Of a stretch of 64,000 nucleotides of DNA, positions 13,604 to 52,952 are shown in pieces (the stretch's first letter is position 1; every line of letters begins with the position of its first letter). The notes beneath the pieces were generated by a model. The model had not been told where the DNA came from. It did not search any database and worked only from the letters and a program-made list of their open reading frames with translations. This DNA is from Botryllus schlosseri (lineage: Eukaryota). The stretch lies in the NCBI GenBank assembly GCA_051294905.1, contig CM119371.1, forward strand, positions 28,150,001-28,214,000, written 5' to 3'. Both the position numbers and the translations under genes were made by a program.

Positions 13604-14181
13604 ATGGCCCCTTCCCAGCGTCGTAACGGCTCCAATGATAATATTTGCGAGGTGTGCGGAAAAAGCTTTATCCTCAAATGTAATCTGACAAGACACAAGA
13701 AAATTCATGCTGCGTCGAAGGATTTTGAGTGCGACATATGCGGTAAAAGCTTTTTGCAAAGATATGCAAGAGATGCAAGAGATCATTCAACACGAACTGC
13801 AACTTGAGAAATCACGTGAAAATTCACGCAGGGGTAAAAGATTTTGAGTGCGAATTCTGCGGCAAAGCATTTCGTACGAAGTCAAACCTTAATAGACACA
13901 TCAAGATGATACACTCGAAAACCAGAGGATACGAGTGCGATATATGCGAGAAAACATTTGCGCAAGAGTCTCACCTAAAGTGTCACTATTCCGTCCACAC
14001 GGAAAGGAAATACCCATGTGAAGTATGTGGGAAAATATTCAATAACATATCCAACTCGAGAAGACACATCAAGATTCACTTAGGAGTAAAAGAGCATGAG
14101 TGCGAAATATGCGAAAGAGCATTTAGTGAAAAGAGTTCTCTTCTGCGTCACTTACGAATCCACGGAAGCGACGGGAAGTAA
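13604..14181 (+). pseudogene. Frameshifted, contracted paralog of the C2H2 zinc-finger gene at 602-1732
   Basis: Same N-terminus (MAPSQRRNGSNDNICEVC) and C-terminus (RHLRIHGSDGK). A deletion from finger 2 into finger 3 at about 13761 shifts the frame. Fingers equivalent to 4-5 and 8-11 are absent. Confidence 0.85.
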
Positions 14182-15032
14182 AGATGCGAGAATCCGTGGA
14201 ACAATTAGGAGACGGATGGTCATGGATCCAGTGAATTCGTCTGTTACATCCGTGGAAAAGTTTTGATAAGTAGAAGTGATATCATATTACATCTTGGTAA
14301 GAATGAATTGGCGTGGTGAGGCATTGAGGTCGGTCGCAACATCGATTACATATGAGACCAATAACTATGCATATATCGCAGGGTAAGGCAATTTATGAGT
14401 AAGTAGACGTTTCGTGCAACCATTTTTAAACTAGTCTAGGAGATCTGGACAACTGAATTGGTCTCATTCAGACTACCGAAATCGAAATCTCGGTGAAATG
14501 TAATATCCCTGTTTGCGATGGAAGATTTCTTTTCAAATGTACATTGACGATCACACGATATCTGCAAGAAAGCGGTTATTATACGCATAGCTGTTGCTAA
14601 CAGCGTTCACGTTCAAGGATTATCGACGTTTTCTTCATCGGATGGTGCTTCATACTGTAGCGTACTGGGACTTCATACTATAGCGTTGCTACTTGAATCG
14701 GCTTATTGCTTGACTTGAAAGCCAGCACCCTTTGTTGAGCTTCCTCTTTCCGTTTTCGAACCGTTATCATCAGTATATTGTTATTATTCGTGCTGCAAGC
14801 ATCGCAGCGTTTTTTTTTTACTCGTTTTAATAAAAATGTTACTCTAATGTCTTAGCTTGATCAGTACAGAGTCTGCGGACGCAAGGTAACGAGCTATCGA
14901 ACACCTCGTCATAATGCTTATAGTAGATTTTGGTCCTAATGATGCAATCTATACTTCAGAACAAATCCTCCAGCGGCATACGGCTCTAAGCAGAGATTAC
15001 ACTATTTCGCTTACTATCAATATTATACAGGC

Positions 15033-22740: not shown

Positions 22741-23067
22741 CACCATTACTTTGTACTTCTACCACAGGTAGTGTTGACATGCTCTGAAAATCTCTACTTC
22801 CGCTTTTGATTGATAAGAATCAGATGTTAATATAGTTCTACTTCTATTTGAGTACTAGTATTAACTATTTTGACTACATCTTGATATGTTTTAACGAATA
22901 ATGATATTCTGTGATTCGAAAAAGCATATCTTTTTATGATATAATCTTTTGAAAATTCTAGAACGCAGCAATATTCTAACTTTACCACGATATTTGATGA
23001 AAGACCGATAAATCGAATTGAATGCTCATCGCAGCTTACGTCGCAAAGTATACTCGCAAAGTTTGAA

Positions 23068-24453
23068 ATGGCCCATTCCCAACATCGTAAAGGCTACAAT
23101 GATAATATTTGCGAGGTATGTGGAATGGGATTTATCATCAAATATTATCTGACAAGACACATGAAAATTCACGCCCCTACGAAGGAGTTTGAATGCGAGA
23201 TATGCGGAAAAAGCTTTGTGCAAAGGCCTTATCTAATAACTCATCTCGCGTCCCACGCGACGAAGAAAGAATATAAGTGTGACATATGCGGGAGATCATT
23301 CAACGCTAGATGGAGCTTGAAGAAACATGTGAGCATCCACGCCGGGGTGAAAGATGATTGTGAGTGCGAAATTTGCGGCAAAGGTTTCGCTAGTAAGGGT
23401 TATTTGAAAACACATTTTCTGAGTCATACTGGAGCCAAAGATTACAAGTGTCATATATGCAGCAAAGCTTTCGCAGACAAAAGTACTCTTAGAAGTCATC
23501 AGTTGATTCATATCAAGGCGAAAGTTTACGAGTGCAATATATGCGGAAAATGTTTCCGACATAAAAGTACACGGAACACTCATTACTTGATTCATAAAAA
23601 GTCGAAAGATTACGTGTGTCAGGTATGCGGCAAAGGTTTCCGAAGCAAATGTGACCTGAAAAGTCATTTTTCGATTCATATTGCAGCCAAAGATTACGAG
23701 TGCCGAATATGCGCAAAAGGATTCAAAACAGGATCTCACCTGGAAAGTCACTATTTGATTCACATCGGAGATAAGAGACATAAGTGCAAAATTTGCGGGA
23801 AGGCATTTCGTTGGAAATCGAACCTTAAGGGACACGTGAAGGTGATGCACTTGAATATGAAAGAATATGAGTGTGATATATGTGGGAAAGCATTTTTGCA
23901 AGAGAATCATCTAAGATATCACTATGCAGCCCATATGGATAAAAAATACCAGTGCGAGGTATGTGGGAAACCATTCGATCTTAAATCCAATATGGAAAAA
24001 CACATGAACGTTCACGTCGGATTGAAAGAGGGTGAATGCGATGTATGTGCGAAACCATACGTAAACAAGTCGCAATTAAGAGCACACATGAAATTTCACG
24101 CCGGATTGAAAGAGTTTGAATGTGAGATTTGTGGCACAGTATTCGGATCGAAGTCGTACGTTCAGATACACATGGAGTCAACGCACTTAAACACGAAAGG
24201 ATATGAGTGCGATACATGCGGTAAAGTCTTTCGGCAACAATCAAACCTTAGAGCTCACTATTCCATCCACACGGAAATGAAATACCCGTGTGCAGTATGC
24301 GGGAAAATATTCAATGTCAAATCCTACTTGAAAATCCACAGCAAGATTCACTCGGGATTAATAGAGTATGAGTGCGATATATGCGAAAGGATGTTCGGTG
24401 TAAAGAGTTCTCTTCTTCGTCACTTGCGAATCCACGGACGAGACGGGAAGTAA
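23068..24453 (+). CDS. Polydactyl C2H2 zinc-finger protein, 461 aa, 16 fingers, single coding exon, no effector domain visible
   Basis: Intact ORF of 16 tandem C2H2 units, colinear with 602-1732 plus three extra fingers; homologous 5' and 3' flanks. Confidence 0.95.
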   Translation: MAHSQHRKGYNDNICEVCGMGFIIKYYLTRHMKIHAPTKEFECEICGKSFVQRPYLITHLASHATKKEYKCDICGRSFNARWSLKKHVSIHAGVKDDCECEICGKGFASKGYLKTHFLSHTGAKDYKCHICSKAFADKSTLRSHQLIHIKAKVYECNICGKCFRHKSTRNTHYLIHKKSKDYVCQVCGKGFRSKCDLKSHFSIHIAAKDYECRICAKGFKTGSHLESHYLIHIGDKRHKCKICGKAFRWKSNLKGHVKVMHLNMKEYECDICGKAFLQENHLRYHYAAHMDKKYQCEVCGKPFDLKSNMEKHMNVHVGLKEGECDVCAKPYVNKSQLRAHMKFHAGLKEFECEICGTVFGSKSYVQIHMESTHLNTKGYECDTCGKVFRQQSNLRAHYSIHTEMKYPCAVCGKIFNVKSYLKIHSKIHSGLIEYECDICERMFGVKSSLLRHLRIHGRDGK

Positions 24454-26639
24454 GGATGCGACAATTCGTGGGACAAATCGAAGACGGTTCGCTGTGGTAG
24501 AAATTGTCATCGCAACCTGAATATTCGTCCGCTGCATCCGTGGAGACGTTTTGATAAGTAGAAGTGATATCTTGGTAACAATGAATTAGCCTGCTATGGT
24601 ATTGGTGTCGGTCGCAGCATTGAATGCATATACGGGACTAATAAACATTATTATAATGCAGCGTAAACCAATTCAAGAGTAGGTACTAAGTAGACGCTTC
24701 GCACAACCACTGTAAATTAGAATAGAGGGCCGGGGCTATGGAATTGATCTGATTCATACTATACCGAAAGAGGATGGCAATAACTGTGTTTGCGACAAGT
24801 TGATGTATTCTCATTTGAAATGTAAATTGGGGATTTTATGATATTTTGAAGAGCAATGAAATTTCACGCGAACGCTCGCTGATAGCCCTTGAGCGTGTTC
24901 TTTTGAGGATTAGCGATGTTTTCTTTATGACATGGTGCTTCATGCTTCTAGTATATTTTACGTTGTCATCAAAGCTATGCTTCAGGAAGTGCAAGTTCGC
25001 GAGCTTGATGCGGCCCATTGCCGCCATGTCAGCATGCATTGGGCAGTAGTTATTTAGTATCAACTGTTCGAATTTAAAACAATGTAAACAAAACAATGAA
25101 TACAATGCTTTTTAATGTGTAGGGTACTCTGCGTCAACGACCAGCTAACGTGCGGCTTATTGCCTGGTTTCGTGTGTCCTTTCCTTTGCTCGTCAATGGA
25201 AATGGTGATTTATGCAAGTCGACTATGTAACTTTTCAACTCGCAACGACGAATGTCGCATTACGGCCGCTATCAATATCTTATTGTCGCGAATACTTGTC
25301 CCATGGTTTGTGACCGACGTGAACCCGCATATAGCAGTATTTTTTAATACCAATTGCTCGAATTTTGTGTTGAATATGAACGACAAACATGCTGCTTGAG
25401 CTTGAGTGCGGTCAGTTTTGTGGCCGGAATTTCATCTGACAATCGGGTGCTGCGTTCTAGACAAAGGGCAATTACTGCTTTAATGTAATCGATAACAATT
25501 ACAGATTGCGATATTAGTGGTTCCCAACCTTTTTCGACTCATTGCCCCTTATCCAGCTCGACACAAATCCACCGCATCCGAAAAAGAGGACATATAGGCT
25601 AAACAGGAAATCTGTTCACCTATTTCTCATCGCTGATGAATTGACCACAGAAGACATTTTCTGAGTATCTGCTCGAAAGACTGGTTTCCGTTGAGTTGAC
25701 CTCTTTGTTTTGTCAACTTTCGCGACATATGCAGAATCGTGTAGATCGTGTAAACATGTTCATGCCAATCCGTGACTAGCACCAATGGCCTCATCGACAA
25801 ATGGTTACTCCATCTCTTAAACGAAGGCGACTGATCAATGACGAGCCTTGGGTGGAAAGGCGTTTCATGGTATCTGTTATATTGACGTTAAAGTGGAATG
25901 ACATATATTTCTACAACGGAATCGGGCTTGAAAAAAAGGTATGAGCAGTGACGACGTCCACAAATGCTACTGTACCGTATCTAATTTAAATGATAATTAA
26001 TGAGCAATATTTTTCGTAGCCTACATATTTACAACTCCTATTTATTAGCAACCTTCATATGGTGTGGGCGGATCGACAAATTTCCTGGTCCGAATCCAAC
26101 CATGTTACTCTAAAACGTAATTCGGTTCCTATCTGGAACCGGTCGCATTAAAAAAAAAGTAATTCCGGCTCCGGTCCTGCACCGGTCCAAAATTAAAACA
26201 TTCTGCTAATATCCGCTTTGTTTGAAGCTCAATCCTGTGTCATGAACAGCGCGAATCCGGTTCGACTACAGAGATGCTCCAGCCCCGGTCAAGAATTAAA
26301 AAAAATCCGATCGATAGCCACTGCTGTTCCACTCCATGCTCCGCTCTCCTGGCATATAGCCTAAGATAGATTGATTCATTTGACTCACAGACGTTTAACT
26401 GTACGGAGGATGCATTTTAGTTCCACACAAGTGATACAGATCGTAGCAATTTATATGTGCTGGTTGTGGTGACATCATTGTGCCAGTAAAAGGCATACTG
26501 AGACTGTCATGTCGCTACTGAAGGAATCAACCTTGTCGAAAATGTTAATGAAAATGGACCGCAGCAGATAAAGGATTGCTGCTGATAATCTGATTATTAG
26601 ACACAAGTCAGCGTATATTTCCCGTACGTTGATCAGAGT

Positions 26640-32133: not shown

Positions 32134-33882
32134 TAGAGTTGGATCAATAACATTATTTCAGTTCAATTACAATTACAATTACTTTCATGCATGTTTCAAT
32201 TACATTACAATTACAATTACAATTGCTGCTGTTGAACATGTAATTGAATAATCATAAATTCAACCGTGCTCCTTGATAACCGTAGCGTCGTAATTAACAA
32301 CAATTCAAGTATTCATGTTTCATTCATGATACGCAAATACCCGTTAACTAATAAAAAGAAAAACGCTTTCGAACTATTCCTAATCATAGGAAACGTTGTT
32401 AAGCGACAGTTAACAACCAAAAGTTTGAGCGACTGGCAATGACTAACAACGAATAGGCAGCAAGATGGGCAATGAAACGCAATCAAACGAATAGACAAAA
32501 CTGAGCAACGCAAATGAAATGTAGCTCTCAAGACGTCAGCGTGTGTAAAATTCAGGTAAATGCAAATGGAAAGAAGCTCCTGATACCATAAATTACAATT
32601 TTTGTTTGCATTTACATTTTTCCTTGTTCAAAAACTGCTGGATTGCATTTAATGAACATTAAAGTGCGAAAAGTTTCTGGCACCAGTAAATGTCATTGTC
32701 ACGTAATATAAGCGTGTTTTGTATGCTCGGTAATTATGGCTCACGTAATTGGAAATGTAAAATGTTATTTACCTAATTTCCTATGGGTTAGGGTTAAAGA
32801 TAGGGTGCAGTATGTCGTTGAAGAAAGTATATAGTATATAATTAAAGAAATAATATTATTTTTATCGAGAGACGTAGGAATTACGATGAGGAGTAAAAAC
32901 AAAACCGTGCTTTGTCAGATAAGACGTTATATAATGTCCAGTGGTCTGGTTAGTTAGCCAGACGAAGTAACGATGCAGCATCGTGATCTGAAATCGCATT
33001 GTAGAATGCCAACCATCGGATAGATGCGCAAGATGTGAGTCACGAATGAATTTACCGACAAACGTACTGCAGAGCCGGCTAAAAGCAGCAAACTTTGTAG
33101 TCCTAGAGCTGGCGATCCAAGCGTCCAAATTTGATGCATCTGGTCTTTATCGTAAGCTATTGATGCACTAATTCTGAAAATACAAATTAAAATCTCGTCA
33201 GGGCAATGTAACTGTTCCAAAATAGCCGTTTAAGGCCGACTGTTCTGAAAAGTGAGAGCGCCGCAGCAGCATGACCACAACAATGACCAATTACGCCCAG
33301 CGATTGTTCAGAACAATGCCGATTCCCAGACTTTCACGACTATTTTGGGATGGTACCATTGCCTGGAAATATACTTTTATTGCGGAATCAGTGCGATACT
33401 AGCTTTCGATTAGGATCATACATATCAAATTTCGACGCTCGGATCGCCAGCTATGGGACTGTCAATTCTGCTGCTTTAAGCCGGCTCAGCAGTTCGCTTC
33501 TCGGCGTATTCAATCGTGCGAATCCATCCGTTGGTTGGTAATCTGATACACAATGGCAGCCGAGGCCAGCATAGCGGTAAAAATAAAAAAAAATCACCCG
33601 CAAGGGCGCAGTCAAGGGCTTCCACGAATGGATCCACCAAATTCCTAGTCGATATTTAAAAATAATGCATTATAATTCAATTATTTTATGTTGTGCTTGT
33701 CAGGTCTCAATAGCAATTTAATGTAATTGAAATTGTAATTGAGCAAAATTTTTGTCAAATTACAATTACAATTACAATTACACAAAATAAAAATGCTTCA
33801 ATTACAATTACATTACAATTACATTGAAAAATGTAATTAAATACATTCAGCTCAATTACAAATTACAATTGATCCAACTCTG
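32134..33882. mobile_element. Nested hAT-type element with AATTAC arrays
   Basis: TAGAGTTGGATCAAT...ATTGATCCAACTCTG; perfect TSD GCACCCAC. Confidence 0.9.
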
Positions 33883-35186: not shown

Positions 35187-36314
35187 CAATATAATGCAAT
35201 TGCCAATATTCTGACGAAATTTAGTCATCAACCTGAAAACTGTCCACCCTATGTGGCACACGACAAACATTTGGAGTGGGGGACGAATTGCTGTTTTGGT
35301 CCTGATTCTGGCTACAACCCAAGCTAACATGCTGTATAAGCGGCTGGCTATGGTGCCAGTTCCAAATGTTGAGTAAAGAATTGCGAAATTGGCACCCGTT
35401 TCAAGTAGAGTCATATGAGAAAAAGATAAAGTGAACATAAAATTCTGCCTTCCACTTAATACAGATACTGCAAGCTGCCGTTACGAGAAACGGCACACAG
35501 CGGCTCGGTTATGATATATCAACAGCTGTTGGTTTCTAATGCTTCATTGTGGAAAACGCATTGTTTCTTTCACTTGACTAGTACAAAATTCCAAATCTTT
35601 GTCCGCCAAGCAACAACGGTCAAGCTGCGTTTAACTAGGCATAACCAGACATCAATACATAGTTACTATTTGAAACTAGGCAGCGTTATGTTTATTACCC
35701 TGCTGCGAGGTATAGTGGCGTCTGGACTCTGGGGTGCATTGGTAACCTGATATACAACATGACAGGTGTTTTTACGATCACACTGCAATGTTCATCGAAT
35801 AATTATTTCCTATGTGTGGTCACTTCTTACGCAATGACAAGCAAAGCTAATATTTCTGTCGTAATAATGAGCAGTGGCGTTTGAACATCAGAAGTTTGTG
35901 CTATCAGTAAACCTGGTATATCTTCATTGTTCATAATGTTCACGTTCACGAATGTCCAGTTTACTTTATGTCATAGTCCTTGTAAAAAGTAATCGTTCTA
36001 TCACAAAAAAATCGATTACGATCGAAGCAGTCGATTACGATTACGATTACTTCGGAATTTTTTCGAATGTAATCGATTGCAATTACGATTACTGCAAAAT
36101 GCTGTAGGCCTAATCGATTACGATTACTAATCGCGATTGCCCCATGTCTGGTTGTCAGTAACGACTTACATTCACTTTTCGAGATACTTCAAATTGATTT
36201 TGCCTACTCAAACTATTTCCTCAAGTCGTTATGATTTGAGACTAATTTTACTTCTACTTAACAGTGTAGCCGCTTTTTAGGCAAAACTATTCTTAGAATA
36301 CTTACCCTTTAACA

Positions 36315-36814
36315 CAGTGGTTCCCAACCTGTGGTACGCGTACCACTAGTGGTACGCGAAGGTCTTCCAGGTGGTACGCGAGTAGATTCTGTTTTTTTTT
36401 TCGACCGAAGGAAGTTATTAGTTCAGTTGGGTTGATTTTGAATTTTTTGAAGTTTTTTGACTAGTGGTGAAAAAACAATTCTACGCATCTCAGCAACCCG
36501 GGCTGATAATGCCTGGTTTAATAGAATTTGTTATTACTAGGGTGATTTTTCTTTACAAAATTGAGCGTTAAGTTAAAAAATTGTCAAAATTATTTACAAA
36601 GTCAAAATTTTTTGGACCCCTTCATTTCGTTTGTATCGTAGATTTTGATATTTTCCAGCTTATAGCCCAAATAGCTCAAATACGTGAGTATGACGTCAAA
36701 AATGGTGAAAACATTTTTGACTGCCTACGGCGTACGTAAATTATGTAGGTGGTACGCGAGCACTGCATAAAACCTCGAAGTGGTACGCGGGTTGAAAAAG
36801 GTTGGGAACCACTG
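36315..36814. mobile_element. Young 500-bp hAT-type MITE
   Basis: Perfect TIR CAGTGGTTCCCAACCT; perfect TSD CTTTAACA; GTGGTACGCG repeats. An inverted copy lies at 37218-37716. Confidence 0.95.
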
Positions 36815-37716
36815 CTTTAACATATACCTTTAAATCGCTACTTCTACTTCTATATGAGAGTATAGTGCGACCACATCATGTTTATTACTCGTGAGGTTGT
36901 TGCTAGCTCGTGAACGCAGGACAAGCGTCGTGGCGCTGTTAAAGTGCTGCTATTGTCATGCTCACATACAAAGTCGAGTGGCATTTGGCTGATCAACTCA
37001 AACAATAAACAACACAATATTCATTATTGTTTGAGTTGATCAGCCAAATGCCACTCGACTTTGTATGTGAGCATGACAATAGCAGCACTTTAACAGCGCC
37101 ACGACGCTTGTCCTGCGTTCACGAGCTAGCAACAACCTCACGAGTAATAAACATGATGTGGTCGCACTATACTCTCATATAGAAGTAGAAGTAGCGATTT
37201 AAAGGTATATGTTAAAGCAGTGGTTCCCAACCTTTTTCAACCCGCGTACCACTTCGAGGTTTTATGCAGTGCTCGCGTACCACCTACATAATTTACGTAC
37301 GCCGTAGGCAGTCAAAAATGTTTTCACCATTTTTGACGTCATACTCACGTATTTGAGCTATTTGGGCTATAAGCTGGAAAATATCAAAATCTACGATACA
37401 AACGAAATGAAGGGGTCCAAAAAATTTTGACTTTGTAAACAATTTTGACAATTTTTTAACTTAACGCTCAATTTTGTAAAGAAAAATCACCCTAGTAATA
37501 ACAAATTCTATTAAACCAGGCATTATCAGCCCGGGTTGCTGAGATGCGTAGAATTGTTTTTTCACCACTAGTCAAAAAACTTCAAAAAATTCAAAATCAA
37601 CCCAACTGAACTAATAACTTCCTTCGGTCGAAAAAAAAACAGAATCTACTCGCGTACCACCTGGAAGACCTTCGCGTACCACTAGTGGTACGCGTACCAC
37701 AGGTTGGGAACCACTG
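36315..37716. repeat. Near-perfect palindrome with arms of about 694 bp and a 15-bp spacer
   Basis: 36315-37008 is the reverse complement of 37024-37716. I found only one homopolymer indel and one substitution by eye. Spacer ACAACACAATATTCA. Confidence 0.96.
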
Positions 37717-38349
37717 CCTTAAAGGCAGCACATATTTGCACAATTGCACATGTATATAGTATAGTTTCGTACATTGACTATAGAAGTGAATATATATGGA
37801 TATATATCCTCGTAGGCATTGGTGTCAATTCCGGTACATATCGAAAGCCACGGAGATCATCATATGTCTCAAAAACCATAAAATGACCGTGTATCTACTC
37901 ATTGGGCGGCTTTTGCATTTGTATTTTTAATGTGATTTATTTGCTTTATTGTAAATATTTGGTTCGTCATGGAAGGGCGGAAGACTGTCGATATGAAGTT
38001 GCATTAGCGCCCATAAGTGCCGTATTTCGGCATTCAACATAGCCCGTGCGCGATTTGCGTAACAGTTATTGCGTATGCTTGGGAAAGAGATTTCCTTTTG
38101 CTCATAATCGCTACTCTTCGAACGTGAATCAAGAAAACCTCTCTATATAATCAGCAAACTCAACCCATTGAGAAAACTACTTTTATTCCTATGCAATACA
38201 TGAAGAGGTCAGATTACAGAATTGCAGTAGATTAAGAACTGGCAAGGGTTGCAGAGCAGAGGTAGAGATGATTGAAAATGAAGAATCGAGATTACAGAAA
38301 TTTTGTTGTGATACACGCGCACAAGTGTAATTTTAGTCCAGTGTGGTGC

Positions 38350-38550
38350 ATTCAAGGCCTTCCGAAGAATCTGCACAGTGCCCAATAACGTGATCTTTTG
38401 AATCATGTCGAATCGAACATTTCCCGGAATCTGTTGGATATGTCCGATGACTATCGGTGCAATGTTTATTTTGCATCGCCACATCTTCTCACATTCCATT
38501 TGGAAGTCTGCGTATTTCGGATGTTTTTCTGATTCTTTTTGTATGACCGA
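38350..38550 (-). mobile_element. 3' relic of an R4/Dong-like non-LTR retrotransposon (restriction-like endonuclease C-terminus)
   Basis: KESEKHPKYADFQMECEKMWRCKINIAPIVIG...MIQKITLLGTVQILRKAL matches the KE.EK..KY.DL...MW...PIVIG...QK..LLGT..ILR signature, with an internal deletion. Confidence 0.8.
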
Positions 38551-38597
38551 TTAGGTCTTTTGCACGACGTATGCATGGTGACTAACGTACACAAGAG

Positions 38598-41500
38598 GAT
38601 ATCTTATCAGGGGTGATCAGCAATGTAAACAGTCACTTACCTCCACGGCATTAGTAATTGCGCAAACCATCACATACCAGTGATATCGACTGTGTTTAGT
38701 GAACGTTTCTGTACTTCCATCACGTACTCATGTGTTTTATATTGTTTTCGGAATCACTTAAATGGATAACCCACGTGGACAACTTGTTTAAACAGTATCA
38801 AAGTCTCTTACTTATTTCCACAGGGCTTGTAACTCTCGGCCCCCATCATGGGGTTTATCCCCGGCACAGATAAGTTTCATGGAAAATTCGAATCGACGAA
38901 TGCATTGTCTCCTAACCGGAGGGGGGATTCTTCACTAATAGGGAATTTGCGTTTTGTAGGGAATCTGGCTTAATCGCTCTGATGTATCTGCTGGCGAAAT
39001 CAGACGTACATACAGTGATGCGGAGTTCTGATGAAAGAGGGAAATGATGTGCTGCCTCGATTATAATTATCTTCGGTATATGTAGATGTCTGAGTAGAAG
39101 GGTCTGAAGTGTTACCTGAAGGATCGTAGCCATCCGCTCCTGGCGGTTTTATGGATCAACGAGCATGAACTGCATGTTGCATCTGGCTTCAGGATTGGTA
39201 AGCTTTATCAGGGGAGAGGCATCTGGACTCACCTACTTTCGATTTACTTACGTACCGTACTAGCGTTATGAAATAAAAAGGGTACCGTACAGGTACGATA
39301 CATTGATAACATCATACGACAATTTAGTTCCTCAGTTTCATTATCAGTTTAAAAATATTTTCATCATTTCAAAACACTGCAAAACGCAGTTTTCGAATAC
39401 ATGTTTTCTTCTTGATCTTTTGCGCGAAATGACCTGCCGTGGACGTGACATTCATAATTACAAACTCGACTTACAAACATCGTCATAGCTACCCAGTGCC
39501 CACGTTCTTGATTGGCTAAGTAGCTCTGTAGCACCGGCGGTTAGATATACGGTGTGGGCGTGTAGCGTAATGTTATATGTTACGGTTACGATCGAATACT
39601 TCGAGAGTTGAGACGCCGAAAGTTACATTTGGAATCGGTGTAACAGATATCCCTGCATCCGATTAGTATCAGTTACAATGAATGTAAGATACTTACGATG
39701 TATGACTTTATCAATGGTGAGCTTGGCCTGTCTGTGTCTTACCTCTCGTTTCGCGCTTGATTTTTAAAACAATAAATATGCAAAGTATGTGATTTAAGGA
39801 GAAAATGTTCAAAATCATGTCATTCATGAACATTGATTGAAAATACCAATAGCAATCGAAGGTTTCGCAATTTTCGTTCGCTCATCCTACCAGTCGATTT
39901 TATGGCTTGTCCTTTTATATTTATCAGCTTTGATTTTCAATTATTATGCATGCCTCCTCATTACATCGCATAAGCCCAGGTGGGTATCTGATTTCAAAGA
40001 CTACTCCTAGTCGTTTCTGCATATTCCTATCTTTCATTGTATTGCACTCTTGTGATGTTTTGAAGCGGCGAAATCTTATGAATGAACTTGAACTTAAACA
40101 AGTGGTGGAACTGCCTCACTTGCCTCACTTGCCTCACTTGCCTTCCCTACCCAAACCTACATTCTCGTAACTCTAGTTTCGCACGCTCAAATAAGTCATC
40201 CAGCATGATAAATACGAGTTTTTACAGAGAGAATGCGGCGCTCGCGACAAATACCGAGTCGTGAGTTCAAATTAGTGATACCACGACGTCACGAATTTTC
40301 ATTTGTGACGTAACAGTCGATTGACATGTATGGCTGTTTAGGAATTTAAATGGAAAAAATAGGGTCAATATGGCTCTTTGGACATAAAAGGTTCCCCCCT
40401 CCCCCCCCCCCATCTGACCTAGGCGAGCTAAAGGAGAGGCATTCACACTGAATGAAAAGTAAAGCAGATAATATGAGCGGCAAGCGTACATTGGTCGTTT
40501 CAGTGAAAGTTACAGTAGACGCATTAGCAAGAGGGTAGGGTATCGATGGTACATTTAAATGAGTATATTGCACTGGTTCATGCTCTACAGCAGTGGTTCT
40601 CAGCCGCCGGTCCGCGACGACCTTCCTGCCGGTCCGCCAGGTATTTTACAATTTTATACCTTGATTTCAAGATGCGAAAGGTACGAGCTGACTCGCCAAA
40701 CCGCGCAGTTTGCTCGATGATTCGTTTTCGATTCATTCATTTCGTGCAGAACTACCGCACCCAAGCCCCCTATTGAAGGAGGCCCAAAGTGATTTCGTGA
40801 ATGAACATAAATTATAGAGTATTTCTTTGAAACTTCATCCAACTTAAAAAAAAACAATTCCGCGCTTCTCCCGACTTAGTCTCACTAAATGCCTTGATTA
40901 TTGGGTGACCTTCCCCCAAGAAACACGCATGATATACAGGAATAGGCATTCCAGCGTCAGCCATTGCCGCGCTGCGACGCACCAACACATAATGAAGTTT
41001 AGGCGAACATAGGACTCCGAAAAGTGTGCCAAAGATTCGGCAGAGAGAACACCTTTGCCCTTTGTTGACCCAAAACTTCGATATATATGTGTCACATTGT
41101 CTATAGGCACCAAAATGGCTGGCGCAGAATTTCGCCGACCTGACAATCTGTGCCCAACAAGACAAATGCCATCTCACAGAGTACAGTTATTTTCCAGTGA
41201 AGAAATACTAATTTGGAATTGTGTGCGTATTCTAGTTTGGTGCGCTTGGGCGATATCAATATCTATTCACTATATATAACAGACAGTACGTCATGAAATA
41301 ATGATATACAACAAAGTAATTATTCCAACACGCCCGCCGAATATGTTTAATATTGCTGACGTGTCCTGAATTTTTCAAGACAACGCCTTACTCAGCTCTA
41401 CCGGAAAATCTGATAATTCTGAAAGGATTAAAAAAATAGAGCAATATATACGCAATTAATAATATTATTGACCGATTCGGTCATGAATTATAAAAAATTT

Positions 41501-44480
41501 CCCTGCTTCGCGCGATTAGGCTACATATACTCTCTGCATACATGGAGTAGAATCGATGTGTTCGCGAGTTCTGGTGAAAAAATCCATCTAACTGTAGGAG
41601 GAATAAGGCCAACATTTTTTGAGGGGTTGGGTGACGAAGTGGTTTTGCGGCCCCGGTTTTGTGGATGGCCAGGTGTAGCTGTAGTCAGGTGTTTTAGTGC
41701 GGCGCATTGTATCTGTAGTAGCAAGAGTTGCCTACGTCTGGTGTTGTTGGCAATAAGCATTGAGCAAAGTAGCACGACAAGGTGCTTGGTTCGACTCCGA
41801 AAAACTTCATTTATCGATATTGTCGAAGAGAAGAATATTGTTCTAGGTGGCGTGGTCGTTTACATCCATGGCCAACGGCGCGAAAGACTGTAAAAGACTC
41901 TCGGCGATCGCACGTGTGTCTGCGCAAGGCAATTTTACTTCGACTCAGCCGACTCACTACCGTAAAATCACATGGATGTCATCATGAACATCATCAATTT
42001 CGGCCAACCCCTCAAAATGTCACTCTATAGCACCATATACTTGCAAAAAAACGGCAGCATACTTCAACTTTTCGGTTGATTTCAAATTTTGAAAGTCCAC
42101 CGGTCCGTCAAGTATTTTTCGAAATTTTACCGGTCCGCGAGGTGAAAAAGGTTGAGAACCACTGCTCTAGAGTAGGCCTAGTGGTACTCATCCTTTGGGA
42201 CGTCGCGGACCTGTGAAATTTCAAAACAAATGTTGCTGACTGGTAAACCTTCAAAAATAAAAATCGAAGAAACTGCAGTGTACCTTATCATCGTGTGTGC
42301 GAAGTACGCCAACGAAAGGTACCAGTTTAGCGATGCCTTACTGGACTTGAGAGTACCCTTCATCATGGAAAATATACTAACTACCGACTATATATTACAT
42401 CTGCTGTGGGAATTTTCAGCGAAGACAAAAAACAATACTAAATGGTTTCGTTGAATTCATTTATTATCGCCATATCAATTCGATTAGCAACTGCACATGC
42501 AGTTGTGACGCAAAAGACAACAATTGTTATATGCATCACTCGAATTGTTCGTAAATATAATAATACTCGAAAAAAATAAACATATCCGTGGAATTGTGGG
42601 GGGTTATTGCGGTATGCAAAACATGATCAACCCGCAATGCCAAAATCCAAAATTGAGAATTTTGGTACGTATTGATTTTACCCCTCCTGTACACTCTTGT
42701 GCACGCAATTCACGTTGTACATGTGCATGCAGGTGCCGTACGCGTCTGTCTATGGTTAAGGACATATAGGGTTGCATTCGAAACAAACAGCGTTTGAAAA
42801 CACTTAGTTTATAACATGTTTTAAACAGTTTTTGAACAAATGCTTTTTTATAAAAAAAAAGTTTTTTTTCAAACGTTGTCCAATTATGCTGTAATACGTC
42901 CAAAAACATGTAGTAGGAGCCTATGGACGATCTGCGCCAATAATTGTCCACGTATTCGATGTGAGGTGGCTGGAACCCTCGAAATCGTCGTCGGTTCAAC
43001 AGTTTTAGGCTGTAGATATAAATCATTGGTACGGAATAAGTGTTCTGAGGATGATTATCGCCGATGGTAAAAATGCTGCGTAGCGATGTAGCCATGGTTA
43101 AATATATTTTGGTCGGTTTATGACAGTGGTTGGCGGTCCTTTCCGTCGAAAGAGCCCTATTTATCCTAGATTTTCAATTATAAATGTCAATCCACGGTGA
43201 CGTCACAATTAAATATTCCTGACGTCATGGCTAAAACACACACAAAAAAGCAATTAAAAACATGTTTAAACAAGGGCCTTTGGTTTTAAATTGATTTTTG
43301 TTTTAATGCAACCCAAAGGACATAGCTGCTAGTATGCGGTGAGCGTGGACTCTCTATGTTCAAACCATCCCTATTTCATGGATCCCATGATCAAGTATCC
43401 TCGTCCGATGATACGCGATCAGTACAATGCGCCTTACCCATCAAAGTCTATATCATCATGGCCAAACACTACCGTAACCGACTGCGCAAATTTCCTGATA
43501 TAATTTCAGTAAATTTATATGAGCAAAATTCGAGTGTAAATTTAAGGAACGCGGTAGAGTATAATAAATCTTGCTAATAAATAGAAGTATGACAAATATA
43601 TATAGCAGCTCTCCCCTAAATTCATATTTTACGTCATAGTTAAATGTCCGATCAATCACTAGTTCAAACAGCTGCAATTTTAGTTACCTAATAACGCTAC
43701 AATGAAGCGAGTTTTATGGCTTCTTAGAATTCGCGTCGCCCAGCAATTGCGGCAACACAAAATTCGAAGTCATAAAAAATGATTTACGATCAATGCATAA
43801 ACGGAAAGATTTTTTATGGTACGTTTGGATTTACCATAGCCTATTTCTAGTTGGTTACGCCCGCAAGGGAACACGTAATTCACGGAAACGAGGGAATAAT
43901 CAAGTTTAAGGCAGCATGCGACTCCTGTAAGTCTGTAGCTTAAAAGATCAGAGGCTGTTAGACCTTGCCAAAACATTCCGCCGCATGTTAGCCAAAACTG
44001 TAGGCCTTAATGTCCAGTGCAGCAATGGCCGGCACCTGATAGTGCTGTCTTCCAAAACTGATCCGGATCATGACAAAATGACAAATTGGCCTAGTCGGCG
44101 TGTCACTGAAGGACTATTTCTTTAGTTCAGTGTGATACGCGTTGAAGATTCCAATACATATTGACTGTAGTAATAATCTGACATTTGCCGCTTACTGCAT
44201 CAATCTAATGTGTTACATATACAGATCACGATCACCCAATTTCAGTTAACATCCGCATCACACGACCAAAATCAATTATCAAAACAACAGTTCAAGCAAC
44301 TGGATTTCGCTGTTGGCCTGTTTGTCTTTATTAAGAATTGCTAATAAAGCACTTATATAGCATCGGTAAGTCTTGATTAGTTCTGCAGATTCGATCAATA
44401 GGCGGAGAACAATCAAAATATCCATCGATTGTTGTTTCGATTGTGGAAATATGTTCCGCTAACGTTGTATAGCGAAAATA
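38598..44480 (+). pseudogene. Decayed LRR gene, copy B, split by insertions (homologous blocks about 38598-39265, 42520-42770 and 43480-44480)
   Basis: Colinear DNA homology to copy A; fragments LHLASGLVSFIRGEASGLTYF (about 39177-39240) and PWNC / YCGMQNMINPQCQNPKLR...SCARNSRCTC. Confidence 0.55.
40591..42164. mobile_element. hAT-type element
   Basis: CAGTGGTTCTCAGCC...GGTTGAGAACCACTG; TSD CTCTACAG/CTCTAGAG; CCGGTCCG repeats. The interior at about 40750-41520 is homologous to about 57810-58570. Confidence 0.87.
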
Positions 44481-44848
44481 TTATGCAGTGAAAATTATGG
44501 TCTCCCCACGCACCCCCAGCGTAAGCCTTAGACCACTTAAGACTGCTTTATTGAAGAATTCGCGATTATACGTTTCACGGGATACCTAAATTAAAAGTTA
44601 TGCTTCATAAAGGCTTATTTATACAACAATATTGATAGCGGTGATTAGCTATGTAAACGGTGACTCATACGGTTATACCCCTCGCCCTCGGATTTATTAA
44701 TTGTATGAACTGTAGCATACCGGTGTAAATTGAAGCTAGATGTGCTCTCATGATGCACTCATGTCATACATTTATCTTGTTTTGCGAGTCACTTGAAACG
44801 TTTACCCGCGTGGACGGCTTGTTTGAATAGTATCAAGGTCTGCTATAC

Positions 44849-45826
44849 CAGTGCTTCTTAACCGATGGGCCGGGAAGATATTTTAAGAAACGATCATAGA
44901 TCCAAATTTGTAGGTCTGTTCTCTACCACGCAAGTCAAAATTAGCAAAAAATGTCAAAATTTTCAACGTTTTCTTCACCTTTCGTATGATGATTCCGGAA
45001 CATGTAATTGACGGACAAGCGAGGCTCGTGCACTTTCGGACCTAACTCAGTACAGCCTTACGGAGAAAATGTGCTTTTGGTCCGAAAGTGCATGAGTCCC
45101 GTAGTAGTCCGGTTTCGTCAAATTCAGATTTGGGAATTAGGCTGCGTGATTCGCAAAATATGAGTTTTGAAATGTTAGTCACCTTTATAACTCCCAGAGA
45201 AATGCAGAGATACCTCAAATATGTGACAGGCGGTACTGACCTTGAATAGTGCTTTCAGAACTATATTGATTGCAGTTGAATTTGTTACCTCAAATACTTT
45301 TCGTTTGTCCCTTATCAAATTTCCAAATATTCAAAATATTTCATATTCTCAAGATTAGAAAAGTAATTTCACATTCTCCTTCTTTAAATTAAATTGTTTT
45401 GCGCGAAAAGCTCACAATTCGGTAGTCAGATTTTCGTCACAATCATATTGAGTGGAGCGTGAAATCCGACAGTGCGTTATTGTGTATGGAAGAGATTGAA
45501 ATTAATTCTTTCTTCAAAGTCTTTGCGAACATTGATCGGGAAATGTAGCAATCCAGCCCAATTATCACAAATCAAGCTCCTCATAACCCGTTAATTCGAC
45601 GTAATAGACGAATTGCTGATTGGATATTCGCTTTATTGTCTGTTTTTGTCTGTGGTATTCATGGCGTTCTGGTACTAGTAGGCGCGACGAGATAACTGTA
45701 CCGCACTGAAAACATAAAAAATGGCAACCAGGAGCAGTGGTTTGTCGCGAAAGGGTGTCTGGTGGGCCGCGCTATGAAATTTGGTTGAAAGGTGGGACGC
45801 GAACTGAAAAAGGTTGAGAAGCACTG
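44849..45826. mobile_element. hAT-type MITE, 978 bp
   Basis: CAGTGCTTCTTAACC...GGTTGAGAAGCACTG; perfect TSD TGCTATAC. A partial inverted copy runs from about 52209 into the gap. Confidence 0.92.
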
Positions 45827-46339
45827 TGCTATACCTTCGTATTGCCACATACCATGCGACTCTCGATTGCCATCATGGGGTTGAGTCATACCATACCATA
45901 GCGTGCTCTTCAACCTATTTGAGCACCGTCCGCACATTTTTGCATACCATTACGAACCATAATAAAATGATTCCGCGTATGCGTTGATCGTAAATCATTT
46001 AATATTACTCCGAGTTTTGTGTTGCCGCAATCGCTCGGCAACGCGGATTTCATGAAGCATTAAAAATCGCATCATCGTGGTATTATTAGAAAACTAATAT
46101 AGCTGTTTGAATTAATGATTGATCGAATATTGACATTTGACGAGAAATTGAAATTTACGTGAACGCGGCAATATATATTTGCCATACTTCTATTTATTAG
46201 CAAGATTTATTATACTCTACTGCGTTCTTTAAATTTACACTCAAATTTACCGCCCTGAATTTACCGAACTGAAGGCTAACCAATAAATGTGTCCTGTCGG
46301 TTATGTCGATCTTGGACCCCTCTGATATATGATGAAATA

Positions 46340-48294
46340 AATATACCTTAATATGAAATATGTAATAGAATACCTAACAATAGTCTATTCAGATGTGCGA
46401 CATGTAGGCTATCGTTTTAGGCTATCATGTGTGTCAGCAAAAAGACAACTCTTTTTCTCTCTTTTTGAGTTCAACTATAGCGCACATAAACCCCTTTCAG
46501 CGAACAAATTTTGGGTTTTATATAAGTACTTCTAGTGGTTGGAAGGTCGGGTCTTTATAAGAATCTTCCAGCGCTCCTATCAAAAATACGTCATATTTTC
46601 TGCAAGTGGAAAATGCTTGCTGGCAGCAATCGATTTTATTTGTATGACACACTAAGGTCTCGGAGGGTCCAGTTCGTTGAAGGGGTGCAAAATCCAATTG
46701 TTTGCTTTAATACTTCTGATGGATAAGAAAATATGCTCGAAAACTATATCAAAGAGAGGACGTACATTGTTACTCGCTGGCTACCTTATGATGCGCTGCT
46801 CCAATATGTGTTGTATTATTTTAATTTCCCATTTTCTGCCCCGCTAATAAATGAGAAGAGCAAAAAAGCCAACGATACCGCATGTTCTGCACTTTAACTT
46901 AATCCAATGTGAAAGGTCATAGCACTTCAATAACCTCAAAGCTGCGATTCATAAACATTTCAGAGCGCCACCGGAACCTGAGTTTTATTTGCATCTCCCT
47001 ACTCAAGCCTCACACATCAAAAATAACTGATTTATAATCTTATAATATTATGCTCCAATTTTATGAGCATGTATGACAAGGAGAACGGGCAGACAACAAT
47101 TGTACGCAACACACGCGATATCAAATAGAGGTGAATTATTTTCCTCTGCATGTTGCATTTGGACTACTGTCTTGTGTCTACTCATATTACCAGGACGGGT
47201 CTATTCGTTGCCGACTGGCTACCATTTCGACGACCGATCATATCAATATCGAGAGTTTTGGCAAACCAGTGACGGTCATTTTTGCCCAAAGTGTTGTCGC
47301 CGACGGTATACACTTTGCGACCCATGCTTTAAAAACCCTCCTTAAAGGGGTAAAATACCTCGTTATTGTAATACGGTTATTGTGGCGACCCTGGCGACAA
47401 TATAGGTATGTGACTTAAACACTTGCTACATCAGTGTTTCCCAACGTGGGCGCCAGCGCCGCCTGGGGTGCTCGCAAGCGTGAAGGAGGCACTGGTCATG
47501 AAATGGGCGAATGGGGGACGCTGGCTATAAAATTGGGCGGTAGGGGGTGCTGAGAGCAAATGTGGGCGGTGTAGGTTTAAAAGGCAACTGCTGGGTAGTG
47601 TTTAATCGATTGATAAATAAAGCAGCTAAGTACGCAAAAAACTGCAAAATCGATACAGTCAAGGCAATTTAGGATCATCCGTCGTCGTCCGTTCAGCTGT
47701 ACGGAAAAGTCCATTGTTACATGTTAATCTTGATCCTGCGTATCAATAAACTCCTTTAGCAGTCGACAGACCTCCTAGAAAGCGTGGTTCATTATGTGCT
47801 GTCAGAACTACGGAGTATTTGAGCAGTTATTGCTTACTGCAAGAGTGAGGACTTTTAAAGACAAACTGTCTTGCGTGATTTTATTCTCTGTTTTAAACAA
47901 TCGTGGATTTTTACAGTGCTGCGACCGTGGTCTTCGACATGGTACTCTGGTTGCGAGAAACGATATCAATTCTACTTGACGGGCATATTTTCCAAAATTT
48001 ATACGTAGAATATATCTATTCTTAAAAATGATGAAACCTGATAAAGGTCCGGATTCATTGATAAGCTCGTGATATTTTGACGAAACTTTGGGAGGCGTGA
48101 ACTGTTTCAATTATCAAGGTTGTAAGAGCTACCGATCAAGCTTGAATACCTGATTTTGATGGAGAAACACATATCAATCATCTCAGAAAACTGAAACGAG
48201 GACATGGTGATTTGATTCCAGGATATATTCCAATCAGAAATTCCTTATCGGATAATCAATCCATTCTGCAAAGTTTCCGAGCATGGAAATGATT
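46340..48294 (+). pseudogene. Decayed LRR-receptor fragments (mirrored at about 49668-51690 on the minus strand)
   Basis: IEYLTIVYSDVRHV, GLYKNLPAL, EGVQNPIVC (LRRCT-like), LQCCDRGL (LRRNT-like), VLWLRETISILLDGHIFQNL and LPIKLEYLILMEKHISIISEN. Confidence 0.5.
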
Positions 48295-49667
48295 AAGGAG
48301 GATAATAGAGAAAACAAGACACAACGACAAAGCTCGTACTAACATAACGATACTGAGAGTAAGGTATGGAGAGAATGCACAAAACCTAAACTACGAAAAT
48401 TTATTCAACAGAATCCGAAGAAACGTAAACCAAATTAAAGGGCAACGATTAAGCTGGATCGGGAAAATAAAAGCAACGAAAGCGATGATTGCACCAAAGA
48501 TAACATACACGGCTTATGCATCGCCGCTAACTGCCAAACAAGTACGAGAGATACAGGGAGAACTATTTCGAATGCTCTGGGCGCCGGAAAAGATCGAAGC
48601 AAAAAGCCGGAGTACTCTTATAAAAGAAAGAAAATACGGAGGTATAGGAATGATTGATATAGTAACCCTTATCAAGGCAAAAAGATTCAAACGAGCCCAA
48701 ATTCTAAGTATAATAACCGAACCGGAGGAAATATGGCATCAAGAAGCAATATATAACATGGGCACCAGTATAAAAAATATTAACCCAACGTTATATCATA
48801 ATAATATGCCACACAGGTACAAGCCGACGAAGAGCTTTACGGAAGAAATCACAACATACAGCAACATAATAGCCGAATGCGAGGATCCTGAAAGAATCAC
48901 GCAAAGAGAAGTATATGAAATATTGCTAAATACCGTAACCGAGTCCAACCAAGAAATGCAACACTGGAAGGAAATATGGCTAACATCCTCGGTCATAACT
49001 AAATATATTAATAACCAAGAAAGAGAAATATCATACCGAATAGTAACCGAAGCTATATTTACAGGATCAAGAATGAAAAAGGCAAAATGGACCCACAGGA
49101 AAAATATGCCAAATAAAAGCCAATGCAAACTATGCGGGATAGAGAATGACACGATGAAGCACATGTATGTAGAATGCCAAACATACAAAGAAATCTTTTA
49201 TTTTATCAGGAAAGAACTCGAAGAATAGTCAGAGCAGACATCGATATAACCGAGGAGCAAGCATACAAAAACACATACTCCGGTCCACACTGAAAATCCA
49301 CCACAGTGGCATATACGAGTGCAAAAGGCGAAATATGGAGATTCAAAAGACATATGGACATTATCAATCATTACGCAACGGCCCAAGAAATAAACGATCT
49401 CAAGGAAACAATAAAAAAGAAAGTTAAATCAAAGATACAAGGAGTGTGACGAAAAAACGCCATACCGACCCGACGCGCGCGAATATAATAATACCAAATA
49501 TTCATATAGAATCGCCATAAAAATATATATACCTACAATGGTCTACCGCTTAAGATAAGATACATACATATCTTACAAGCACTTGTGTATTTTCTTTTCA
49601 TGTTATGTTATTTTTCGATAATACTGCACTTTGAAATAAAATCACAAAAAAAAAAAAAAAAAAAAAA
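48293..49667 (+). mobile_element. 5'-truncated L1/Tx1-clade LINE: ORF2 C-terminal part, 3' UTR and poly(A)
   Basis: Frame open 48293-49228 with LSWIGKIKATKAMIAPK, YGGIGMID and CKLCGIENDTMKHMYVEC (zf-RVT-like). The coding strand is A-rich. AATAAA at 49635-49640; A22 tail at 49646-49667; no TSD. Confidence 0.92.
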
Positions 49668-52600
49668 GGTGGATTGGAGATGATATTGAACTTTGGCTTG
49701 AACTCAAAATAGTTCAGCACTACAATAGAATCAGCACCTCAATCATTTCATGCTCGGAAACTTTGCAGAATGGATTGATTATCCGATAAGGAATTTCTGA
49801 TTGGAATATATCCTGGAATCAAATCACCATGTCCTCGTTCAGTTTTCTGAGATGATTGATATGTGTTTCTCCATCAAAATCAGGTATTCAAGCTTGATCG
49901 GTAGCTCTTACAACCTTGATAATTGAAACAGTTCACGCCTCCCAAAGTTTCGTCAAAATATCACGAGCTTATCAATGAATCCGGACCTTTATCAGGTTTC
50001 ATCATTTTTAAGAATAGATATATTCTACGTATAAATTTTGGAAAATATGCCCGTCAAGTAGAATTGATATCGTTTCTCGCAACCAGAGTACCATGTCGAA
50101 GACCACGGTCGCAGCACTGTAAAAATCCACGATTGTTTAAAACAGAGAATAAAATCACGCAAGACAGTTTGTCTTTAAAAGTCCTCACTCTTGCAGTAAG
50201 CAATAACTGCTCAAATACTCCGTAGTTCTGACAGCACATAATGAACCACGCTTTCTAGGAGGTCTGTCGACTGCTAAAGGAGTTTATTGATACGCAGGAT
50301 CAAGATTAACATGTAACAATGGACTTTTCCGTACAGCTGAACGGACGACGACGGATGATCCTAAATTGCCTTGACTGTATCGATTTTGCAGTTTTTTGCG
50401 TACTTAGCTGCTTTATTTATCAATCGATTAAACACTACCCAGCAGTTGCCTTTTAAACCTACACCGCCCACATTTGCTCTCAGCACCCCCTACCGCCCAA
50501 TTTTATAGCCAGCGTCCCCCATTCGCCCATTTCATGACCAGTGCCTCCTTCACGCTTGCGAGCACCCCAGGCGGCGCTGGCGCCCACGTTGGGAAAACAC
50601 TGATGTAGCAAGTGTTTAAGTCACATACCTATATTGTCGCCAGGGTCGCCACAATAACCGTATTACAATAACGAGGTATTTTACCCCTTTAAGGAGGGTT
50701 TTTAAAGCATGGGTCGCAAAGTGTATACCGTCGGCGACAACACTTTGGGCAAAAATGACCGTCACTGGTTTGCCAAAACTCTCGATATTGATATGATCGG
50801 TCGTCGAAATGGTAGCCAGTCGGCAACGAATAGACCCGTCCTGGTAATATGAGTAGACACAAGACAGTAGTCCAAATGCAACATGCAGAGGAAAATAATT
50901 CACCTCTATTTGATATCGCGTGTGTTGCGTACAATTGTTGTCTGCCCGTTCTCCTTGTCATACATGCTCATAAAATTGGAGCATAATATTATAAGATTAT
51001 AAATCAGTTATTTTTGATGTGTGAGGCTTGAGTAGGGAGATGCAAATAAAACTCAGGTTCCGGTGGCGCTCTGAAATGTTTATGAATCGCAGCTTTGAGG
51101 TTATTGAAGTGCTATGACCTTTCACATTGGATTAAGTTAAAGTGCAGAACATGCGGTATCGTTGGCTTTTTTGCTCTTCTCATTTATTAGCGGGGCAGAA
51201 AATGGGAAATTAAAATAATACAACACATATTGGAGCAGCGCATCATAAGGTAGCCAGCGAGTAACAATGTACGTCCTCTCTTTGATATAGTTTTCGAGCA
51301 TATTTTCTTATCCATCAGAAGTATTAAAGCAAACAATTGGATTTTGCACCCCTTCAACGAACTGGACCCTCCGAGACCTTAGTGTGTCATACAAATAAAT
51401 CGATTGCTGCCAGCAAGCATTTTCCACTTGCAGAAAATATGACGTATTTTTGATAGGAGCGCTGGAAGATTCTTAATAAAGACCCGACCTTCCAACCACT
51501 AGAAGTACTTATATAAAACCCAAAATTTGTTCGCTGAAAGGGGTTTATGTGCGCTATAGTTGAACTCAAAAAGAGAGAAAAAGAGTTGTCTTTTTGCTGA
51601 CACACATGATAGCCTAAAACGATAGCCTACATGTCGCACATCTGAATAGACTATTGTTAGGTATTCTATTACATATTTCATATTAAGGTATATTTATTTC
51701 ATCATATATCAGAGGGGTCCAAGATCGACATAACCGACATGGACACATTTATTGGTTAGCCTTCAGTTCGGTAAATTCAGGGCGGTAAATTTGAGTGTAA
51801 ATTTAAAGAACGCAGTAGAGTATAATAAATCTTGCTAATAAATAGAAGTATGGCAAATATATATTGCCGCGTTCACGTAAATTTCAATTTCTCGTCAAAT
51901 GTCAATATTCGATCAATCATTAATTCAAACAGCTATATTAGTTTTCTAATAATACCACGATGATGCGATTTTTAATGCTTCATGAAATCCGCGTTGCCGA
52001 GCGATTGCGGCAACACAAAACTCGGAGTAATATTAAATGATTTACGATCAACGCATACGCGGAATCATTTTATTATGGTTCGTAATGGTATGCAAAAATG
52101 TGCGGACGGTGCTCAAATAGGTTGAAGAGCACGCTATGGTATGGTATGACTCAACCCCATGATGGCAATCGAGAGTCGCATGGTATGTGGCAATACGAAG
52201 GTATAGCACAGTGCTTCTCAACCTTTTTTCAGTTCGCGTCCCACCTTTCAACCAAATTTCATAGCGCGGCCCACCAGACACCCTTTCGCGACAAACCACT
52301 GCTCCTGGTTGCCATTTTTTATGTTTTCAGTGCGGTACAGTTATCTCGTCGCGCCTACTAGTACCAGAACGCCATGAATACCACAGACAAAAACAGACAA
52401 TAAAGCGAATATCCAATCAGCAATTCGTCTATTACGTCGAATTAACGGGTTATGAGGAGCTTGATTTGTGATAATTGGGCTGGATTGCTACATTTCCCGA
52501 TCAATGTTCGCAAAGACTTTGAAGAAAGAATTAATTTCAATCTCTTCCATACACAATAACGCACTGTCGGATTTCACGCTCCACTCAATACTGATTGTGA

Positions 52601-52852
52601 CGAAAATCTGACTACCGAAATGTGAGCTTTTCGCGCAAAACAATTTAATTTAAAGAAGGAGAATGTGAAATTACTTTTCTAATCTTGAGAATATGAAATA
52701 TTTTGAATATTTGGAAATTTGATAAGGGACAAACGAAAAGTATTGAGGTAACAAATTCAACTGCAATCAATATAGTTTCTGAAAGCACTATTCAAGGTCA
52801 GTACCGCCTGTCACATATTTGAGGTATCTCTGCATTTCTCTGGGAGTTATAA

Positions 52853-52952
52853 NNNNNNNNNNNNNNNNNNNNNNNNNNNNNNNNNNNNNNNNNNNNNNNN
52901 NNNNNNNNNNNNNNNNNNNNNNNNNNNNNNNNNNNNNNNNNNNNNNNNNNNN
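52853..52952. other. Assembly gap (100 N)
   Basis: Run of N. Confidence 1.

Follow-up and report, generated by a model that had tools for sequence, protein, structure and literature searches.

An assembled LINE-bridged inverted duplication beside a scaffold gap in Botryllus schlosseri points to a sequencing artefact or a rare molecule more than to inheritance

The stretch of Botryllus schlosseri DNA analysed here (the window, 64,000 nucleotides of contig CM119371.1 in assembly GCA_051294905.1, numbered from its first letter) carries three paralogous C2H2 zinc-finger arrays (599-1953, 13494-14544 and 22945-24667), whose DNA is 76-84% alike, and two older, imperfect palindromes of MITE- or foldback-like character (6627-7299, 84%; 33041-33518, 75%). 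A BLAST self-comparison returned a single long inverted pair, 45185-48298 against 52852-49737, with 99.6% identity over 3120 columns. A second near-perfect palindrome lies at 36306-37725, where arms of ~700 bp, separated by a spacer of ~15 bp, differ by one indel and one inner substitution. Each of its arms is composed of a 500-bp MITE, presumably hAT-like, and ~200 bp of host DNA; the left MITE (36315-36814) is bordered on both sides by an 8-bp target-site duplication, and on its outer side the right MITE (37218-37716) adjoins different sequence. To judge by its sequence, this smaller structure resembles an inverted duplication with a transposon end as its boundary.

The left arm of the long pair (45185-48294, forward strand) is a mosaic of transposon fragments and single-copy pieces. 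The clean match between the arms stops at 48294 on the left and at 49741 on the right, leaving a spacer of 1446 bp that consists of the 3' part of an apparent L1/Tx1-like LINE (48295-49645, forward strand), an A22 tail (49646-49667, forward strand) and a 73-bp host piece (49668-49740, reverse strand) that occurs once in the window. The right arm (49741-52852, reverse strand) repeats the left in reverse complement, apart from 10 one-base indels and one substitution, and it ends at a scaffold gap of 100 Ns (52853-52952), beyond which the sequence holds no continuation of the arm. As a description of the assembled sequence, the original prediction of an inverted duplication of at least 3.1 kb around a 5'-cut LINE is exact. 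A stop-free frame does open at 48293, where the left-arm match stops, and the A22 tail does abut about 73 bp that extend the right arm and have no counterpart in the left. What was called host DNA at the centre, however, belongs to a high-copy repeat, at ~80x single-copy depth over 47775-48173. This repeat, which spans the inner end of the left arm (47587-48294, forward strand) together with 49668-49740, hosts the LINE junctions; no Pfam match was obtained in the four open frames of its right-arm copy.

The stop-free frame of the LINE (48293-49225) encodes 311 amino acids and matches human L1 ORF2p residues 782-885 (E 7e-6). It also matches the Pfam family zf-RVT with an E value of 2.4e-5 and 25.3 bits, below the cut-off of 27.5, and its best Atlas clusters are eukaryotic, with zf-RVT in 56% of the members of the first. 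Two breaks interrupt the reading frame, near 49220 and 49290, and a 3' UTR with a poly(A) signal follows. On the strength of the ORF2 homology, the C-terminal zinc knuckle and the A22 tail, the element is identified at the sequence level as the 3' end of an L1/Tx1-like ORF2; the Tx1 part of the label is an assumption from sequence motifs, the RT core lying outside the fragment. Target preferences occur in many Tx1 families, according to the accessible text of PMC4494074. A search for LINE sequence upstream of 48295 gave no match by DNA pattern and 44 candidates by protein search, none of which was confirmed. Behind the gap, no RT or endonuclease match to the remainder of the LINE was found in the 11 of 23 and 5 of 31 listed frames that were scanned, the single match (MurB_C) being at chance level.

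The two junctions share a short motif. At junction 1 (48294-48298), where the left arm passes into the 5' end of the LINE, the host strand goes on as GAGGTG; at junction 2, the host piece that follows the tail starts with GGTG on the LINE sense strand. The chance of finding GGTG at both junctions is 0.018 within seven positions, a post hoc value, and the chance of a fold-back point as close as 73 bp to the LINE tail is ~0.05 if such points are uniform over the 1446-bp spacer. The junctions thus look biological. Read as nicks, they would imply that both strands were cut after CACC, 73 bp apart, and that the cDNA became linked to the strand recessed at that same end. The claimed lack of a target-site duplication also stands: a comparison of 48256-48310 with 49646-49760 gave no direct repeat of at least 8 bp at the LINE ends, the 25 longest matches listed all being inverted. 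An ordinary insertion into an older palindrome, which would have made such a repeat, was rejected on this ground. In the assembly, a polyadenylated LINE therefore bridges two nearby inverted breakpoints with no target-site duplication, as in TPRT/L1-mediated fold-backs, and the geometry matches published junctions carrying polyadenylated L1, as these are presented in the available passages of PMC7058536 and bioRxiv 10.1101/2024.12.14.628481. Fold-backs of this kind with poly(A) have been explained by sister-chromatid bridging (PMC7058536, in part) or, in an alternative account, by replication or fusion of one broken end (bioRxiv 10.1101/2024.12.14.628481, in part). By analogy, the mechanism originally proposed belongs to a known class, described from human tumours and cell models, and fits the junctions.

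Copy number was assessed in four runs (X1-X4) of one sample, which hold 0.71-0.75 of the words of 43900-49745; they count as one observation because they are possibly the assembly's own source. Runs X5-X9, with word shares of at most 0.11, were left out. The data are contigs rather than reads, aligned to 37800-49745 (flank, left arm and spacer), and the depth table comprises the 32 longest or joint-bearing pieces of ~81,800 (20 flank, 10 arm and 2 LINE). We used the per-contig depth of single-copy pieces, summed depth being no measure of copy number. Where compared, the left arm agrees with the sample without gaps, in contig pieces covering 45799-46212, 46191-46887 and 47082-47586. The ratio of arm to flank depth, taken over the listed arm and flank pieces, was 1.05 in X1, 0.91 in X2, 0.70 in X3 and 0.92 in X4. 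On average, the 10 arm pieces have 0.91 ± 0.15 of the flank depth, with a maximum of no more than 1.09 of the flank mean of their own run, and in the deepest run, X1, the ratio is 1.05 ± 0.04, where a heterozygous duplication would be expected to give 1.5 and a homozygous one 2. The arm thus carries no duplication relative to the flank, and short duplicated arms are largely ruled out. As in a fold-back read, arm depth is single-copy, relative to the local 7.4-kb flank. The original prediction of a recent germline duplication is not supported: it had itself set a check of arm depth, and one of the results that would count against it, single-copy depth on the arms, was obtained locally. Arms of more than 10.5 kb lie outside the test, because flank and arm are doubled alike once the arms pass 37800.

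Several features of these data bear on how far the depth values extend. The innermost single-copy value ends at 47586, and the values cover the arm outside 47587-48294. Summed depth in the bin 46179-46577 is 184, 37, 20 and 26 in the four runs, ~1.8x that of single-copy bins, which we think is attributable to a repeat at 45952-46248, whose end falls in the bin, together with the summing of all contigs at 88% likeness. Neither junction is among the listed contig rows; another 420 joints and 6810 loose ends exist beyond those rows and 49632-49745 was skipped as repeat, so this shows nothing. The idea that the arm belongs to a high-copy family of giant palindromes was rejected, since the arm holds single-copy pieces. 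Over 37800-47586, single-copy contigs are nearly substitution-free against the window, with variable sites listed at 39912 and 42184, and the apparent heterozygosity of the sample is very low in this region. At the other end of the flank, the X1 and X3 contigs over 37800-38212 carry ~350 further letters upstream (37449-37800), and the X2 contig has its first letter at 37717, where the smaller palindrome has its outer edge.

The differences between the arms resemble those of a sequencing read from its reference. Twelve alignment columns differ: 10 one-base indels, one substitution near the gap and one substitution at the junction edge. The right arm has six extra and four missing bases, equivalent to a one-base indel rate of 0.32% between arms, and four of the 11 differences inside the arms fall within 300 bp of the gap (P 0.016). 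In genuine divergence, substitutions predominate. Four of the indels (46294, 46557, 46634 and 47436) lie well inside the listed gap-free contigs, and all 13 run-by-site observations at these testable positions have the left-arm letters; the right-arm indels are therefore errors, and the right arm reads like one uncorrected long read. As expected of a fold-back read, the arms represent one locus and their differences are read errors. Young divergence between the arms is rejected, the differences being error-like and absent from the listed contigs.

Neither the age nor the copy number of the LINE decides between the explanations. Its family is low-copy (1.5-6x single-copy depth), and the LINE contigs have 1.42-1.54x the flank depth, against 1.60-1.68 and 1.30-1.34 under two models. 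This lies between the full- and half-copy values and fails to separate models of spacer copy number. At eight of 11 listed sites one or more runs have the LINE letters of the window, with depths of 0.5-2.6 relative to single copy; at the other three (48788, 49371 and 49384) they occur in no run, contigs being prone to drop rare variants. The suggestion, raised by the word shares of 0.71-0.75, that the LINE is missing from the sample was not upheld, given the letters at those eight sites and the loss of variants from contigs in repeats. Compared with most family contigs, the LINE of the window differs at no fewer than 11 listed sites in 1.35 kb, against one substitution in 3.1 kb between the arms, which weakly suggests that the LINE predates the fold-back. 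Its two frame breaks are no sign of decay, as they fall within the 3.7 indels expected at the right-arm error rate.

We tentatively favor a reading in which one fold-back long read, or very few, at the contig end gave rise to the right arm and probably to junction 1, and we regard a sequencing artefact or a rare molecule as more likely than an inherited rearrangement. The single-copy depth of the arm relative to its flank, the error-type differences and the position of the gap all speak for such a read. The animal would have the region once per haplotype, and in the true allele the LINE would lie antisense behind the 73-bp piece, within the high-copy repeat. At some step of library preparation, amplification or sequencing, a strand would have copied the arm, the 73 bp, the tail and 1.35 kb of LINE and then folded back onto the arm, and the apparent 5' truncation of the LINE would be the joint of the chimera. 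The assembler would then have closed the contig on the fold-back read, with the scaffold gap next to it. The passages available from PMC12870357 give a fold-back frequency of 0.55-0.6% in ONT genomic reads and figure one read with ~2 kb between its arms; among chimeras of whole-genome amplification, 85% are inversions with an intervening deletion (PMC1855051, in part), and amplification inversions get into assemblies (PMC6218980, in part).

Several points count against the fold-back read. The 73-bp offset (~0.05) and the GGTG at both junctions (0.018) would be coincidences, and if the LINE were truly present, normal reads in good number should have been there to correct the right arm and to carry the assembly further, such that an unexplained drop-out is needed. 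The bin 46179-46577, at ~1.8x single-copy bins, is also contrary, and the four runs are one sample seen as contigs only. Fold-backs are virtually absent from PacBio HiFi data in PMC12870357, which would count against this reading if the library was of that type.

A real, constitutive inverted duplication with arms of more than 10.5 kb, the rest of the right arm being collapsed or in the gap, is an unlikely alternative. LINE cDNA would have been primed at the 73-bp overhang and linked to the opposite, recessed strand of that broken end (or to the sister after replication), with the distal chromosome restored through a second junction; an older LINE at which the fold-back happened later would give an identical picture. 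Arms of this length account for the break in the contig and for arm and flank being equally deep, both then being doubled, and fit the 73-bp offset and the GGTG at both junctions. The LINE letters of the window stand at 0.5-0.9 of flank depth at some sites, the few flank variants (39912, 42184) could be differences between the arms, and the geometry is that of TPRT fold-backs arising by replication or fusion of one end, as excerpted from bioRxiv 10.1101/2024.12.14.628481. Against this, the right arm would have to continue unseen for at least 7.4 kb and a chromosome-scale piece would have to contain a second junction, and the many reads expected to span the centre should have given a clean right arm beyond 3.1 kb. 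The 1.4-kb palindrome at 36306-37725 was assembled almost without indels, and the LINE contig depth of 1.4-1.5x flank separates no models.

Rather unlikely, too, is a rare molecule: a somatic retrotransposition fold-back (or hairpin-capped end) formed on an empty allele in one cell lineage and captured by one long read. Such an event would unite single-copy depth and single-read errors with integration-like junctions; the two frame breaks are within the 3.7 indels expected, such that the element may be intact and young, and its family is low-copy, at 1.5-6x single-copy depth. However, the assembler would have had to choose one read over the normal path, the LINE letters are unmatched in all contigs at three of the 11 listed sites (though contigs drop rare variants), and comparable events are described from tumors and induced cells. 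Both the sequencing artefact and the somatic event require a cause for the failure to assemble the normal path, and none is at hand.

We consider it distinctly unlikely that the locus is an inherited LINE-made fold-back in an invertebrate, in which the endonuclease nicked the same CACC motif on both strands at a distance of 73 bp, the end was closed by the cDNA as a hairpin or fused to the sister, and a palindrome with arms of more than 10 kb was stabilized in the chromosome and passed on. An inherited fold-back of this kind needs a second junction because the locus sits inside a chromosome-scale piece. A short real inverted duplication (less than ~0.7 kb and confined to the high-copy repeat) that arose as the LINE inserted and that a false join extended to 3.1 kb is improbable. 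The stretch concerned, 47587-48294, does lie inward of the last single-copy depth value (47586), but a 0.7-kb repeat is unlikely to mislead long reads and the DNA after the gap starts without arm sequence. Local inverted duplications next to L1 insertions are described in the available passages of bioRxiv 10.1101/2024.12.14.628481. The inherited duplication of 3-7 kb originally pictured, heterozygous or homozygous, is very improbable and largely refuted: the assembled sequence itself and the bin 46179-46577 at ~1.8x single-copy bins speak for it, but none of the 10 arm contigs exceeds 1.09 of the flank mean of its run.

As the evidence stands, the locus serves chiefly as a warning: where inverted arms are nearly identical, differ by single-base indels and stop at a gap, depth and junctions should be checked before the arms are taken for a young rearrangement. 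Were the structure real and inherited, LINE-made fold-backs, described from human tumors and induced cells, would be extended to the animal germline, and it would offer a starting route for long palindromes and segmental duplications. No germline or invertebrate LINE-made fold-back was found in the literature searched, which comprised listings and passages, with few subscription papers.

The assembled structure resembles four known systems, each described here from the accessible portions of the papers cited. With the L1-bridged or TPRT fold-backs of cancer (PMC7058536; bioRxiv 10.1101/2024.12.14.628481) it shares a 5'-truncated LINE with a poly(A) tail that lies between two breakpoints close together and alike in orientation, the absence of a target-site duplication and a short single-copy host piece on the tail side. 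Those events, in contrast, are somatic and read-supported, with a copy-number step on the megabase scale and a distal part that is lost or translocated, whereas the contigs here give no depth step over 10 kb; the breakpoints are offset by 73 bp here and by 5.5 kb in a published lung case, and the GGTG that follows the LINE tail differs from the cancer fold-backs. Long-read fold-back artefacts (PMC12870357) likewise read one locus on opposite strands, with breakpoints within 200 bp or, in one figured read, ~2 kb apart, and are said to tangle assembly graphs; the middle here differs in being a tailed LINE end that can be recognized as such. Whole-genome amplification yields inverted chimeras (PMC1855051, PMC6218980) that combine an inversion with a single-copy spacer of less than 10 kb and produce false inverted duplications in assemblies; they are primed by homology of 2-21 nt, and amplification is off record here. 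Finally, the human germline inverted duplications with a disomic spacer (PMC3907307) differ in their terminal deletion, translocation or ring and in a spacer that is pre-existing DNA, with no new insertion in the cases as described, and are alike in the normal copy number of that spacer, which measures 766-70,466 bp there and 1446 bp here.
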